From the NCBI GenBank assembly GCA_963678315.1, contig OY782781.1, positions 1,632,001 through 1,696,000 of the forward strand: a stretch of DNA of 64,000 bases. The letters run 5' to 3'. The first letter of the stretch is position 1. Each line of letters opens with the position of its first letter. Position numbers: made by a program. Shown here piece after piece: positions 30,001-33,000 of the stretch. This DNA is from Candidatus Cloacimonadales bacterium (GTDB lineage Bacteria > Cloacimonadota > Cloacimonadia > Cloacimonadales > JAFGVF01).

Positions 30001-33000
30001 TTTCCCAATGGGGAAAATCACAGTTATAATAGCACATATCACCTTTTGTATTTCTTACACAATAATCGTAATTCAATCGAGATTACAAGGCTTTGATAAA
30101 TCTCTGGAAGAGGCTGCCCTTGACTTAGGTGCTAATAGAAGGGAATTCTTCTGGAAGATTAAGTTCCCTCTGATTTTTCCAGGTATTTTAGCTGGAGCAT
30201 TATTAGCTTTTACTCTTTCACTTGATGACTTCATTATCACTTTCTTTACTACAGGAAGAGGCTTCAATACCCTGCCTGTCTATGTGGAAAGCGCTATAAG
30301 AAGAGGTTCCATTACTACCATTAACGCTCTTTCAACAATTATGGTTATGATGACCTTGTTCATTACTCGTCTGTCTAAACCAATCAGAAGATTAGCACTT
30401 AAGATTTAGTGAACATACTGCTTAGACAGCTTCTGTTATGAAAAATGCACAGCCTTGGGCTCACTATTTGGGCTAATTTAGGAACAACAAAAACTAGACT
30501 TTTTCCAATAGTCGCAACAAATTATCTTGACACATAGATACTTTATAAAAGTTTACTTTAATAATTATATTAAATCGGATGATATAGAGAGGAAAAAATG
30601 CGTAAAAACAAACTTAATTTACTACTAATTTTATTACTTGCTTTTGTAGGACTTACTTCTATAGAAAGCAATGATTTTGAATTCACATGGCAAGATGAAA
30701 ACACTCTTAATTCAGATGTAAGAATCTCTCCAACAGACCCTCCAACAGGCCAAGTAAGGGCTATTGCCGAGTTTGAACCAATGGATGCAGTTATCGTAAG
30801 ATACCCTTTAGGAATACCAACTGAATTCGTAGCTCTGCTATCTCAAGAATCTCCAGTTATCTGTATAGTTGCTAGTTCTTATGAACAATCTTCAGCTCAA
30901 TCTTCTTTTGATGCGGCAGGTGTTAATAATGATAATTTAAGCTACATTATTGCTGATACAGATTCTTATTGGACAAGAGATTATACATCTTGGTTTATTA
31001 CTAATGGCGACCAAGAAGTTTCTGTTCTTAATTTTGAATATAACAGACCTAGACCTAATGACAATCTTTTCCCTGGCGAATTTGCTGATGAATTTGATTA
31101 CCCATACTATGCTATGAATATAGAACAAACTGGTGGTAACTTCATGTGTGATGGTTACGGTATAGCTGCTTCTTCTCATATTGCTTATACTGAAAACAGC
31201 AACAACCAAACCTTAGTTGATAACACTATGGAAAGCTATATGGGAATTACTGATTACATGGTAGTTCAAGATCCTAATGAAACTTACATTGACCACATCG
31301 ACTGCTGGGGTAAATTCTTATCCGTTGATAAAGTTCTTATCAGACAGGTTGCTACAAGTCATTCTCAATATGATGAACTTGAAGAAGTTGCTGACATGTT
31401 TGCTACTACAAACTGCTCTTGGGGCTACCCTTACGAAGTTGTTCGTGTCTACACTCCTAATGATGAACCTTACTCAAATTCATTAATTCTTAATGATAGA
31501 GTCTTTGTTCCACAAACAGGTGGACAGTGGGATGACGAAGCTCTTGAAACTTATGAACAAGCTATGCCAGGTTACACTGTTTATGGTGTTGTGAATAATA
31601 CATGGAATGGCTGGGAATCAACTGATGCTCTTCATTGTAGAACTCATGAAATTCCAGGACAAGATATGCTTTCAATTTTACATTATCCAATCTGGGAAGA
31701 TGTGCAAGACCAAGCTGTTACTATAGAAGCTAGAATCATTGCCCATAGTAATGAAAATATCTATGCTGATTCTACTAAAGTATTCTATAGAACTTCTCCT
31801 ATTCAAGATTGGCAATCAGCTAATATGATTTTACAAAATGAAGACACTTATTCTGTAGAAATCGGTCCTTTTGATCAAGATTGTAGCATTGAATACTTTA
31901 TTCATTCAGCTGATGAATCTGGTCAATCAGAAGATTACCCTTATGTAGGACAAGAAGATCCATTCACTTTTAACTATCATAATTCTTCTTCTAATGTAGC
32001 TCCTGTAATCACTTTTGACCCAGTATTGGAAGTTGAAACTGCTGATTTACCATTGACAATAACTTGCCAAGCTATCGACCAAGATGATAATCTTGCTGAA
32101 GTAAAATTATTTGCTGTTGTTAATGGAAATGCAAGAATGATCACAATGCAAGAAGACTTATCACAAGATGATACCTTTTTTTGTGATTGGGATTTCTCCG
32201 AATATCTGAACGAAACTGATAATTTTGTGACATATAGGATTAATGCAACTGATTTAGCAGGTGCTTCTACTCAAACCGAAAATTTTACCTTAAATGTTGA
32301 AGTTACACCTAACGCTAACAATGAAACAGAGCTTGTTACTGGTATTCTAAATACTTACCCAAACCCTTTTCATAACAATGTGTCTATTCAGTTTTCTAGT
32401 AAATCAAACAATCAAACTATCTCTGTCTATAACATAAAGGGTCAACTTGTTAGAACTATTAAATCTACTGCTAAAGCTAACAGCCTTTCTTCTGTTAACT
32501 GGGATGGAAGAGATTCTAATGGTAATAAATCTGCTACAGGTATCTACTACATAATCATGGATAATGGAAGAACAAAATCAACTAAGAAAGTTCTCTTAAT
32601 GAAATAAATATTTAATAAAGAATAGTTTAAGGCTGACCTTGTGTCAGCCAACACTGGGAACGCCGGCATCCGTGCCGGCTTTAGCATGTATAGTTTATAG
32701 TAAGGCTGACCACTGTGTCAACCAACACTGGGAACGCCGGCCTCCGTGCCGGCTTTAGTATGTATAGTTTATAGTAAGGCTGACCACTGTGTCAACCAAC
32801 ACTGGGAACGCCGGCCTCCGTGCCGGCTTTAGTATGTATCTACATGCTAAACAACATATTAGCAATGTAGCATTCTGATGAGTTACACCCTACATTTCTC
32901 AGAAATTCCAGGAATGTAAGCATCTTGCTTACAATTGAGACGTTTTCCCAAACGTCTTTACAAAATCATTTGGGAATGTAAGCATCTTGCTTACAAAAAA

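Follow-up and report, generated by a model that had tools for sequence, protein, structure and literature searches.

The gene at positions 30598..32607 (plus strand) of the window, that is, of the whole stretch of 64,000 nucleotides analysed here from the genome of a Candidatus Cloacimonadales bacterium, is a further member of the known family of the Porphyromonas gingivalis peptidylarginine deiminase (PPAD). The sequence of its product predicts a catalytically competent enzyme, its choice of substrate being read from conserved residues alone; fusions with C25 proteases, found in other members, add interest to the family. We consider it probable that the gene specifies a secreted PPAD-type enzyme serving a form of peptide nutrition in which substrates are first cut and then deiminated, that this system is old in Cloacimonadota, and that the enzyme of Porphyromonas is an offshoot of the same family.

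Gene and protein architecture

The open reading frame starts with an ATG and is intact, coding for 669 amino acids followed by a stop, with no internal stops. A Shine-Dalgarno-like GAGAGG, as read from the sequence, is found at 30587..30592, with the ATG 5 nt further on. All features given here lie on the plus strand, and the AlphaFold2 (AF2) model of the complete protein has a mean pLDDT of 87.5.

Residues 1-20 (30598..30657) are likely to form a Sec signal peptide: a basic MRKNK is followed, by reading of the sequence, by a hydrophobic stretch, and the AF2 model features a helix at residues 2-17. Residues 21-44 (30658..30729), modelled with pLDDT below 50 between positions 21 and 39, are assigned with low confidence to a linker or possible pro-peptide, the latter because they occupy the same position as the pro-peptide of PPAD; the mature form of PPAD begins at A44, according to parts of the structure report (PMC4487231), and the window protein would be processed likewise. 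The catalytic domain, a five-bladed alpha/beta-propeller, spans residues 45-360 (30730..31677) and holds D128, R150, R152, Y230, H233, D235, N294 and C347, corresponding to PPAD D130, R152, R154, Y233, H236, D238, N297 and C351, respectively.

Two Ig-like domains follow, both all-beta in the model. The first, residues 361-465 (31678..31992), corresponds to the IgSF domain of PPAD, as the alignment with PPAD reaches residue 465. The second, residues 466-571 (31993..32310), is modelled with high pLDDT, has no counterpart in PPAD and gives weak Pfam matches (DUF7926, 0.016; Ig_TMM62, 0.025). The protein ends in a T9SS type-A C-terminal sorting domain (CTD), residues 582-669 (32341..32604), recognized both by Pfam Por_Secre_tail (PF18962, residues 587-666, 1.3e-9, 38.6 bits versus a cut-off of 27) and by TIGR04183 (8.2e-10, 38.5 versus 23). 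An earlier note on this DNA had spoken of a full-architecture homologue: all the domains of PPAD are indeed there, sorting domain included, but the phrase understates the case, the window protein having one Ig-like domain more.

Downstream of the gene, a 74-bp tandem repeat (32628..32839, 2.9 copies) features in each copy a GC-rich hairpin followed by a T-rich sequence, resembling a terminator; a contig from sequencing run X4 contains one unit fewer. The gene for a tRNA-Arg (CCT), predicted by ARAGORN, lies further on (33116..33192). Among the sequencing runs listed as containing the deiminase gene, none is recorded as RNA. Three 151-nt contigs falling within the gene with at least 99% identity come from two libraries of wastewater that carry the label 'METAGENOMIC RNA-Seq' and can only be guessed to be RNA; these contigs speak neither for nor against expression of the gene.

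Similarity to PPAD and conservation of the active site

Homology to PPAD over the catalytic and first Ig-like domains, as claimed in the earlier note, is confirmed both by sequence and by structure. When the PDB is searched by phmmer, the best chains are those of PPAD, 6i0x_A (3.3e-124) and 4yt9_A (1.6e-122), residues 45-465 of the query being aligned to chain residues 4-424 with 45-46% identity, while the next best, agmatine deiminase-like chains, score 3e-8 or worse. Similarly, Foldseek superposes the AF2 model on PPAD chains with a TM-score (target) of 0.96-0.97 and an rmsd of 1.3-1.6 A over 418-422 columns, to be compared with TM-scores of 0.70-0.78, rmsd of 3.2-4.1 A and identities of 16-21% for agmatine deiminases. 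Pfam PAD_porph (PF04371) is matched at residues 76-353 (1.5e-25, 90.6 bits versus a cut-off of 25); the cut-offs of the agmatine deiminase equivalog TIGR03380 (30.9 bits versus 381.8) and of NF010070 (32.6 versus 483) are not reached.

Every motif quoted in the note, and all catalytic and carboxylate-binding residues, are present in the window protein. With residue roles as given in parts of PMC4487231, these comprise the catalytic triad C347/H233/N294 (PPAD Cys351-His236-Asn297), the guanidinium-binding aspartates D128 and D235 (Asp130 and Asp238), and the carboxylate/carbonyl clamp R150, R152 and Y230 (Arg152, Arg154 and, in the Michaelis loop, Tyr233). All eight are invariant across 62 aligned relatives, and likewise across a more diverse set of 33 representatives, except for the Tyr, kept in at least 90% of the latter. 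The clamp Tyr is missing from a Bacteroidota subfamily that is more distant, so that the Arg/Arg/Tyr set does discriminate. In PPAD, according to the same parts of that report, Y233 and R152 bind the C-terminal carboxylate, and R154, which binds the preceding peptide carbonyl, is the main factor favoring peptidyl-arginine over free arginine.

The window protein shares with PPAD (PDB 4YT9, 5AK7, 6I0X) a catalytic propeller plus IgSF domain with the same triad, Asp pair and clamp, together with a CTD of the T9SS type and, probably, a leader at the N-terminus. Agmatine deiminases (AguA; PDB 2JER, 3HVM, 1XKN-like) are, like it, guanidino-group modifying enzymes of one superfamily, fall within PF04371 and use the same Cys/His/Asp chemistry, but lack Ig domain, leader and CTD; moreover, the carboxylate-binding residues of the window protein suit a peptide C-terminus, not agmatine. 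Vertebrate and cyanobacterial PADIs carry out the same reaction, from peptidyl-arginine to citrulline, but form another family, phyletically distinct from pPAD types (PMC8826395), depend on calcium and target internal arginines.

Export

The earlier note had described the protein as T9SS cargo, a definition that stands as far as the CTD, SprA (517.4 bits versus a cut-off of 200) and PorU (573.6 versus 420) are concerned, all of them encoded in the genome, and fails for the motor components PorL/GldL and PorM/GldM, since TIGR03517 and TIGR03513 found no match either in the study genome or in a complete Cloacimonadales genome (G234). The same two models exceeded their cut-offs in all three Bacteroidota genomes used as controls (P. 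loveana, Ancylomarina and Lentimicrobium). A PorV-like match remained below threshold (131.8 bits versus 250), and for GldK a generic domain only was matched, below its cut-off. A similar CTD tail is found on 102 further open frames of the genome.

Given that PorL and PorM are undetected while the controls have both, the protein is not filed here as canonical T9SS cargo: it bears a CTD of the T9SS type, but the system around it is reduced or variant, and the export route appears to differ from the canonical one. In this respect too, as in its free-living host, it is unlike PPAD.

Association with Arg-gingipain-like proteases

Second copies of the PPAD domain inside long proteins, reported in the earlier note, are real, and correspond to single polypeptides composed of a C25 propeptide, an Arg-gingipain-like protease, an Ig domain and then the PPAD domain. 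As scored by home-built HMMs, a C25 domain lies N-terminal to the PPAD domain in the same chain in 12 of 150 family representatives. Such fusions are found in at least 10 Cloacimonadota genomes: intact reading frames of 1134-1172 aa occur in six species genomes (G004, G024, G015, G010, G007 and G084), while in two others (G156 and G150) the two domains share a single frame of 1691 and 1684 aa, respectively, with one TAG inside the C25 match of G150, and the fusions of G017 and G069 are broken off at contig ends. Some also contain GEVED, MAM or dockerin modules.

The protease part of the fusion is much closer to RgpB (1e-97) than to Kgp (1e-29), and keeps E152, D163, G210-H211-G212, C244, Q282 and W284, residues that bind the P1 arginine (PMC4357240); D163, H211, C244 and W284 are kept in all ten fusions examined. 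The study genome has no C25-PPAD fusion, the distance between its C25 genes and the deiminase gene being about 0.5 Mb. C25 proteases are numerous in it, as the note had stated: 17 Peptidase_C25 matches, PorU among them, exceed the Pfam cut-off. Two tandem RgpB-like open reading frames at 1.163-1.171 Mb feature the full gingipain domain layout, one of them with a Por_Secre_tail, and keep D163, G210-H211-G212, C244, Q282 and W284: by sequence, we infer that both proteases are Arg-specific, so that in this trait too the genome resembles that of the PPAD producer.

Adjacent genes tell a similar story in Bacteroidales, where a same-strand C25 gene adjoins a PPAD-like gene in 12 loci, belonging to three different PPAD clades. 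Of 80 loci, 16 have some C25 match within 6 kb. A count of C25/PPAD co-occurrence across genomes was discarded as circular, because the PPAD half of a fused query contributes to the score as well; moreover, only three candidates per genome were scored.

The natural term of comparison is the Arg-gingipain RgpB (PDB 1CVR, 4IEF), with which PPAD is functionally paired in P. gingivalis. The two proteases of the study genome and the protease part of the ten fusions examined share with RgpB both the D163/H211/C244/W284 set and the propeptide-catalytic-Ig layout. In P. gingivalis, however, protease and deiminase are encoded by separate, unlinked genes, whereas in Cloacimonadota they are also found as one polypeptide, and in Bacteroidales of the Lentimicrobiaceae type also as neighbouring genes. 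The proposal that gingipain and PPAD make up an ordinary environmental pair is strengthened by the fusions, by the 12 adjacent loci and by the intact Arg-binding S1 pocket of the two RgpB-like proteases. Our literature search found no paper on either C25-PPAD fusion or gene adjacency.

Genomic context and substrate

Directly upstream of the deiminase gene, on the same strand and separated from it by 188 nt, lies a set of potD/A/B/C-like genes coding, by Pfam, for a polyamine-type ABC transporter (26394..30409), with no terminator-like site found between potC and the deiminase gene. Among NCBIfam models, the PotA subfamily TIGR01187 is matched over its cut-off (365.8 versus 355.6), while PotD, PotB and PotC are best matches, yet under the equivalog cut-offs. 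This operon suggests a different reading, in which the enzyme would be an extracellular deiminase of agmatine or free arginine, the transporter taking up N-carbamoylputrescine or citrulline, so that polyamines or arginine, rather than peptides, would be scavenged. In a second arrangement, found in G004 as well as in 9 of 24 Cloacimonadota loci, a potABC set lies directly downstream of the orthologue; proteins of this kind are publicly annotated as 'agmatine deiminase family', and the window gene is the only PF04371 match of the genome. Such pairing is not general, though: in all seven genomes examined of the same family, and in G101, there is no such transporter within 8 kb of the orthologue. 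The score against TIGR03380 falls far short of its cut-off, sequence and structure are far closer to PPAD than to agmatine deiminases, and fusion or adjacency to Arg-specific proteases points toward peptide substrates. On balance, we regard action on agmatine or free arginine as improbable; the adjacency hints at a link to polyamine/agmatine metabolism, which falls outside the reach of the peptide-directed explanation.

A carbamate kinase is encoded in the genome (406.8 bits versus a cut-off of 358), surrounded by unrelated genes and outside any arc-type cluster, and no claim is made for a route from citrulline to ATP.

Proposed function

In the explanation that we favor, the protein would be exported by Sec and then cross the outer membrane by means of its T9SS-type CTD and the SprA translocon, with the PorU sortase cleaving the CTD and possibly anchoring the protein. 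As a cysteine-dependent deiminase, it would convert the C-terminal arginine of peptides to citrulline, with release of ammonia, its extracellular substrates being peptides freshly cut after arginine by the gingipain-like C25 proteases of the same bacterium. Cutting followed by deimination may thus feed a proteolytic anaerobe, by removing charge, releasing ammonia and leaving citrulline-ended peptides, instead of serving an attack on a host; both ammonia release and nutritional role are inferred for the window enzyme.

The same activity could be directed mainly inward, citrullinating arginine-ended, gingipain-processed cargo of the bacterium itself and affecting surface charge, vesicles or the maturation of CTD proteins, with external peptides as secondary targets. 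The genome does encode about 102 other CTD proteins, which would be processed at the surface; PPAD is described as citrullinating endogenous as well as host proteins in parts of PMC4487231, and its activity is linked to vesicle biogenesis in parts of PMC7847538. Sequence does not separate an endogenous from a nutritional role, but fusion with a full zymogen-type protease, and with GEVED, MAM or dockerin modules, resembles degradative machinery, and we give a mainly endogenous function very little weight next to the nutritional one.

Distribution and phylogeny

The near-universal presence of the family in Cloacimonadota, noted previously in a smaller sample, extends to 209 of 232 species genomes and 61 of 66 genera (E<=1e-20), and to 140 of 151 genomes of high quality. 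As also noted, one family with small genomes (1.5-1.6 Mb) is an exception, none of its six members having a match at the same threshold. The family is not special to the phylum, however, being also common among environmental Bacteroidales, e.g. Lentimicrobiaceae. Overall, 490 clusters of a 50%-identity protein library are matched (E<=1e-30), and at least 597 stretches of species genomes encode a relative; according to our own home-built CTD model, distinct from that of Pfam, 94-96 of 150 family representatives bear a CTD. The best clusters among leads from the ESM Atlas are PAD_porph, mostly from Bacteroidota; a cluster of 1931 members combining PAD_porph with dockerin, commonest in Fidelibacterota, was also retrieved, with a score (0.76) below the trust level.

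Outside Cloacimonadota the picture is patchy. A survey of PPAD homologues in other Bacteroidota gave 16 positives among 401 evenly sampled genomes, and in the genus Porphyromonas only 4 of 61 genomes have the gene. On the tree, phylum labels require 4 changes, compared with 21.5 when shuffled. The six Porphyromonas rows of the careful tree group in a single small clade (100/100) amid many environmental clades. A quick tree joined Porphyromonas to Ancylomarina and a single Bacteroidales MAG (SH-aLRT 91, not starred); in the careful tree the Porphyromonas clade falls in a polytomy and this pairing is not recovered, for which reason we name neither the donor of the Porphyromonas gene nor the direction of transfer.

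These data bear on the possibility that the environmental copies derive from the pathogen enzyme, through recent horizontal gain from a host-associated, Porphyromonas-like bacterium. In its favor, the identity of the window protein to PPAD (45-46%) is about the same as to many Cloacimonadota copies (49-54%). Breadth and depth of the family in Cloacimonadota, where it forms deep starred clades, its scarcity in Porphyromonas and other Bacteroidota, and the confinement of the Porphyromonas sequences to a single small clade all argue against it, as does base composition: GC across the deiminase gene (0.34-0.37) lies inside the range of the remaining profiled stretch (0.25-0.39). Descent from Porphyromonas is accordingly strongly disfavoured, to the point of being hardly credible. 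We regard the family instead as old, if not ancestral, in Cloacimonadota, and the virulence enzyme of Porphyromonas as one patchy offshoot.

A more radical scenario places the origin of the family in the fusions, outside Porphyromonas. Free-living FCB anaerobes similar to Cloacimonadota would have first had the deiminase as a module at the C-terminal end of an Arg-gingipain-like protease, so that one chain would cut after arginine and then deiminate the C-terminus so created. Stand-alone enzymes, that of the window gene as well as the P. gingivalis virulence factor, would be later fission products, inherited vertically in Cloacimonadota and scattered, in part through transfer, among Bacteroidales. 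When the careful tree is rooted on the outgroup, the PPAD domains borne by fusions do include two groups that branch first (100/95 and 99/87), the branch joining the other 90 rows being supported by 99/90. Both the outgroup branch and the fusion rows are long, though, and a tree that unites the nine fusion domains in a single clade cannot be rejected (delta lnL 2.29, p-AU 0.488); we judge an origin by fission rather unlikely. Since that single clade is not rejected, the occurrence of several independent fusion events is unsupported.

Relation to previous reports

The earlier note, which had found no paper linking PPAD with Cloacimonadota, needs a correction here. Supplementary Fig. S4 of a 2021 study (PMC8826395) already places two proteins of Cloacimonas acidaminovorans, one of a Candidatus Cloacimonas sp. 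and one of a Lentimicrobium on the 'pPAD/AgD type' branch, beside P. gingivalis Q9RQJ2. C25 peptidases are noted in Cloacimonadota in parts of PMC8542988 and PMC8359207, and, in the literature retrieved on Cloacimonadota and deiminases or gingipains, C25 peptidases are all that is mentioned, with no deiminase found. Passages of reviews of 2022 and 2026 describe PPAD as unique to P. gingivalis, or as occurring besides in P. gulae and P. loveana alone, and a passage of the 2015 structure paper proposes that the multi-domain form of PPAD postdates the transfer of a single-domain agmatine deiminase.

Research on PPAD has dealt almost exclusively with its role in virulence toward the host and with its proposed part in connecting periodontitis to rheumatoid arthritis. 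The complete enzyme, with catalytic domain, Ig-like domain and CTD, turns out to be standard across a phylum of free-living anaerobic protein degraders, as well as in environmental Bacteroidales, near-universal in the former while patchy in Porphyromonas, and to be repeatedly wired to an Arg-specific gingipain, either as a neighbouring gene or within one polypeptide. The label 'agmatine deiminase family protein', current in metagenomes, hides predicted peptide-citrullinating enzymes. The partnership of protease and deiminase would be an old module, probably nutritional, that a few Porphyromonas species have inherited or acquired, and non-pathogenic enzymes and natural fusions are now at hand for probing the physiological role of C-terminal citrullination.

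The gene and its product

The window gene is an intact ORF of 669 codons (30598-32607, + strand), whose ATG is preceded, at 5 nt, by a GAGAGG motif. Its product is a PPAD-family enzyme, ordinary for its phylum. Above their respective cut-offs, Pfam recognizes PAD_porph (residues 76-353) and Por_Secre_tail, the T9SS sorting domain (587-666); NCBIfam also confirms the sorting domain, as type A, and gives the agmatine deiminase equivalog just 30.9 bits where 381.8 are required. Among all PDB chains, the top matches are the five distinct PPAD sequences, with E-values between 3e-124 and 1e-120. 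These alignments start at residue 45 or 47, end at 465 and contain three small gaps; agmatine deiminase-like proteins rank next, at 3e-8 or worse.

An AlphaFold2 model, built from 62 relatives (mean pLDDT 87.5), features a leader helix (2-17), a disordered segment (21-39), a propeller domain and then two all-beta domains in succession (about 361-465 and 466-571), followed, after a short floppy linker (572-579), by a tail folded as a beta-sandwich (582-667). Foldseek superposes it on PPAD structures with TM 0.96-0.97 and rmsd 1.3-1.6 Å over about 420 columns, versus a TM of just 0.70-0.78 for agmatine deiminases. PPAD itself is described, in a part of PMC4487231, as propeptide, catalytic domain, IgSF and CTD, the C-terminal sorting domain; compared with this layout, the window protein has one additional Ig-like domain. 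The earlier note's "full-architecture" homologue is thus upheld by PDB match, fold and CTD, but needs amending for this extra domain, absent from PPAD.

In PPAD, PMC4487231 assigns the catalytic triad to C351-H236-N297 and the hold on the guanidinium group to D130 and D238. The free carboxylate and the preceding carbonyl are bound by R152, R154 and the Michaelis-loop residue Y233, and it is chiefly the R154 contact to which that paper attributes the preference for peptidyl-arginine above free arginine. The equivalent residues of the window protein are D128, R150, R152, Y230, H233, D235, N294 and C347. All eight are invariant across 62 aligned relatives, and PPAD's catalytic and carboxylate-binding residues are kept, as previously claimed. 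A more diverse set of 33 representatives has the Tyr in at least 90% of cases and the remaining seven residues without exception. At the sequence level, this residue set discriminates the PPAD type from more distant relatives. A sister subfamily from six Bacteroidota genomes (loci L109-L114; 595-686 aa, about 30% identical across the catalytic and Ig part) retains both arginines as well as the triad, features G, L or Q in place of the Michaelis-loop Tyr, and may differ in substrate end-specificity. One Porphyromonas-genus species (locus L115 of G645, in the genus of P. loveana) also carries a divergent second PPAD paralogue, which shares 37% identity with the window domain and has Pro for the second carboxylate-binding Arg and Ser for the loop Tyr.

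Secretion

The window protein bears a T9SS-type sorting domain, and its genome (G000) encodes translocon and sortase, with no detectable motor. SprA scores 517 bits (cut-off 200) and PorU 573.6 (cut-off 420), a PorV-like protein remains under its cut-off (131.8 versus 250), GldK is matched solely through a generic C-terminal domain, and 102 further open frames end in a similar CTD tail. No match to GldM or GldL was obtained in this genome or in the second complete Cloacimonadales genome, G234, while both models score above cut-off in the control genomes of P. loveana, Ancylomarina and Lentimicrobium. With SprA and PorU present and GldL/GldM not found, we speak of a T9SS-type sorting domain with the motor undetected: of the claim of T9SS cargo, the type-A domain, SprA and PorU stand, and GldL/GldM were not found. 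We infer that the protein would be exported via a T9SS-type route.

In both complete Cloacimonadales genomes, SprA, PorU (shown in G000) and about 100 CTD proteins occur, but neither GldL/PorL nor GldM/PorM is detectable, a pattern that resembles a T9SS-like system with no motor or with another source of power.

Distribution and phylogeny

The PPAD family is near-universal in Cloacimonadota and rare in Bacteroidota. The 2.99-Mb contig of the window's own genome holds one copy, its sole PF04371 match. At E<=1e-20, the family is found in 209 of 232 Cloacimonadota species genomes, including 140 of the 151 high-quality ones, and in 61 of 66 genera; it is missing from all six genomes of one family of 1.5-1.6 Mb, which agrees with the earlier report of a wide spread, broken by one small-genome family. 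An even sample of Bacteroidota yielded 16 of 401 genomes at E<=1e-40, only 5 of them below 1e-80, and the GTDB genus that includes P. loveana 4 of 61. At the protein level, 5721 of 7534 candidate 90%-identity clusters scored match at E<=1e-20, and 490 clusters of a 50%-identity library at E<=1e-30. Scanning 185,579 species genomes by pattern confirmed at least 597 relatives; the 80 loci kept are skewed to PPAD because a PPAD-cluster representative was the first query sequence. Judged by record title and extracted ORF, 53 of them are from Bacteroidota (among these P. loveana and P. gulae, Ancylomarina, numerous MAGs of Lentimicrobium and Lentimicrobiaceae, and MAGs of other Bacteroidales), 24 from Cloacimonadota and one from Delongbacteria, and two lack a label.

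For an IQ-TREE phylogeny (100 rows, 422 columns), six sequences from the Tyr-less Bacteroidota subfamily served as outgroup; its 80 loci, picked by likeness to the PPAD-cluster protein, are a biased sample. The window protein lies beside a 71%-identical orthologue in a supported clade of 15 rows, 14 of which are Cloacimonadota. All six rows from the Porphyromonas genus group together in a single clade (100/100), which sits in an unresolved polytomy along with clades of Bacteroidales and Cloacimonadota. Phylum labels change 4 times on the tree, versus 21.5 when shuffled, and the family has therefore been passed down largely inside each phylum, apart from a few jumps or mis-binned contigs. The earliest branches are two groups of PPAD domains borne by fusion proteins, and these branches, like the outgroup, are long; forcing all nine fusion domains into one clade lowers the log-likelihood by only 2.29 units (p-AU 0.49). 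The tree names no donor for the gene of Porphyromonas and does not fix whether fusion or fission came first.

Fusion and adjacency with gingipain-like proteases

C25-PPAD fusions exist as true genes in species genomes. They are present in at least 10 of 232 Cloacimonadota genomes, a lower bound, since it covers three scored candidates per genome and omits 345 further matches. Home-built profiles placed a C25 domain, that of the gingipain family, N-terminal to the PPAD domain in 12 of 150 best representatives. Pfam analysis of 20 longer or internally placed representatives found Propeptide_C25, Peptidase_C25 and PAD_porph in ten single chains, nine of which also feature the C25 Ig domain; an eleventh has the C25 Ig domain alone, and is therefore probably truncated. 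The two fusions with a source name come from Cloacimonadota MAGs, labelled just "agmatine deiminase family protein".

Collinear fusion ORFs of 1134-1172 aa occur in five genomes of one genus (G004, G024, G015, G010 and G007) and in one of another (G084); those of G017 and G069 are interrupted by contig ends. In a third genus, both domains share one frame in G156 (1691 aa) and G150 (1684 aa, with one TAG stop within its C25 match). A complete Arg-gingipain-like zymogen (propeptide, C25, Ig) and a PPAD-type deiminase are joined in a single ORF in G004 (locus L091:1474-4860, - strand) and G156 (L104:4175-9247), and also in L092-L096. In a tight layout, the PPAD domain begins no more than about 10-15 residues past the end of the C25 Ig domain; in a spaced one, it is separated from it by 150-900 residues, including GEVED or other modules. 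Our own CTD profile found no match among the 12 C25-bearing representatives, and Pfam lists no Por_Secre_tail in the 11 of these that it covered (E<=1e-5) or in the G004 and G156 fusions (E<=1e-4); one representative ends in a dockerin. In G156, a subtilase (S8) gene (L104:1712-4171) lies directly before the fusion and a PKD/PMP-repeat protein gene after it, which suggests a secreted-protease gene cluster.

The protease part resembles the Arg-gingipain RgpB far more than Kgp, in the G004 fusion (1.1e-97 versus 9.8e-30) as in the fusion representative P0157 (8.8e-86 versus 1.9e-16). It retains E152, D163, G210, H211, G212, C244, Q282 and W284, of which D163, G210, G212, Q282 and W284 contact the P1 arginine (PMC4357240); the histidine between the two glycines aligns at 211, though that paper prints His221. 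D163, H211, C244 and W284 are found in 10 of 10 fusions, Q282 in 8. The window's own genome has 17 C25 matches, PorU among them; two tandem genes at 1.163-1.171 Mb, one ending in Por_Secre_tail, are close kin of the fusion protease with an identical pocket.

In 16 of the 80 loci, the PPAD-like gene has a C25 gene no more than 6 kb away. Twelve are strong, same-strand Bacteroidales neighbours, nine upstream and three directly downstream, spread over three distinct PPAD clades; the remaining four are weak matches or on the opposite strand. Gene fusion and adjacency are the classic signature of functional partnership, and would point to one here. Such a partnership agrees with gingipain-null P. 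gingivalis mutants, which, according to section 9 of PMC4487231, lack endogenous citrullination. Fusions, the 12 Bacteroidales loci and the RgpB-like pocket in the window's genome argue for the gingipain and PPAD pairing in environmental bacteria that had been proposed.

The transporter and other neighbours

A PotD/A/B/C-like four-gene operon (26394-30409, + strand) lies 188 nt upstream of the window gene; an independent assembly, from sequencing run X4 of another sample, bridges potC and the gene. PotA exceeds the polyamine subfamily cut-off; the other three genes have Pot models as top match, yet under equivalog cut-offs. This transporter recurs beside PPAD-like genes in two arrangements, which lends some weight to a role of the enzyme in agmatine or polyamine metabolism: other than in the window, potABC, without PotD, comes immediately after the orthologue, in 9 of the 24 Cloacimonadota loci as well as in G004 (for instance L057 8254-11130 and L105 4593-7458). 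No pot transporter was found within 8 kb of the orthologue in the seven same-family genomes or in G101. Both the carboxylate clamp and the links to proteases speak against such a role; we therefore regard it as improbable, and favour the partnership with proteases.

Directly 3' of the gene is a 74-bp tandem repeat (32628-32839; 2.9 copies, 96% identity), each unit of which contains a 6-bp GC-rich hairpin and a T-rich tail; the X4 contig has about one unit fewer. A tRNA-Arg(CCT) follows the repeat. The GC content of the gene, 0.34-0.37, is inside the 0.25-0.39 range of the remaining profiled stretch. GC content drops to 0.25-0.29 3' of the tRNA (33200-38585), where the - strand encodes a DDE transposase and two nucleases, one of the PD-(D/E)XK and one of the YhcG/DUF1016 type: this stretch beside the tRNA may be a hot spot for insertions, or else a mobile or defence islet. 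A Dna2/AAA_11/AAA_12 superfamily-1 helicase-nuclease of 1114 aa (22845-26189, - strand) is encoded on the upstream side of the transporter operon.

Relation to previous work

Reviews describe PPAD as unique to P. gingivalis, or as something it shares with P. gulae and P. loveana alone (PMC9559808, PMC13539308; likewise PMC11121387), and PMC4487231 names P. gingivalis as the sole prokaryote able to citrullinate proteins. Section 9 of the latter proposes that a single-domain agmatine deiminase was transferred, the multi-domain form arising afterwards. Gingipain-like C25 peptidases of Cloacimonadota are already on record in parts of PMC8542988 and PMC8359207. Contrary to the earlier note, which knew of no paper linking PPAD to Cloacimonadota, the text of Fig. 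S4 in PMC8826395 names, under "pPAD/AgD type" near Q9RQJ2, Cloacimonas acidaminovorans B0VI91 and B0VH37, together with one Candidatus Cloacimonas sp. and one Lentimicrobium entry; clade-sharing is not visible in that text. The existence of the homologues is thus already visible in databases and one supplementary tree. Among open-access papers and bioRxiv, we found none analysing these PPAD homologues, their residues or their C25 fusions.

The window gene is confirmed as a PPAD homologue, and its reading as part of a gingipain and PPAD pair is supported. The wider picture is of more than routine interest: a PPAD family near-universal in Cloacimonadota, rare in Bacteroidota, and both fused to and neighbouring Arg-gingipain genes.
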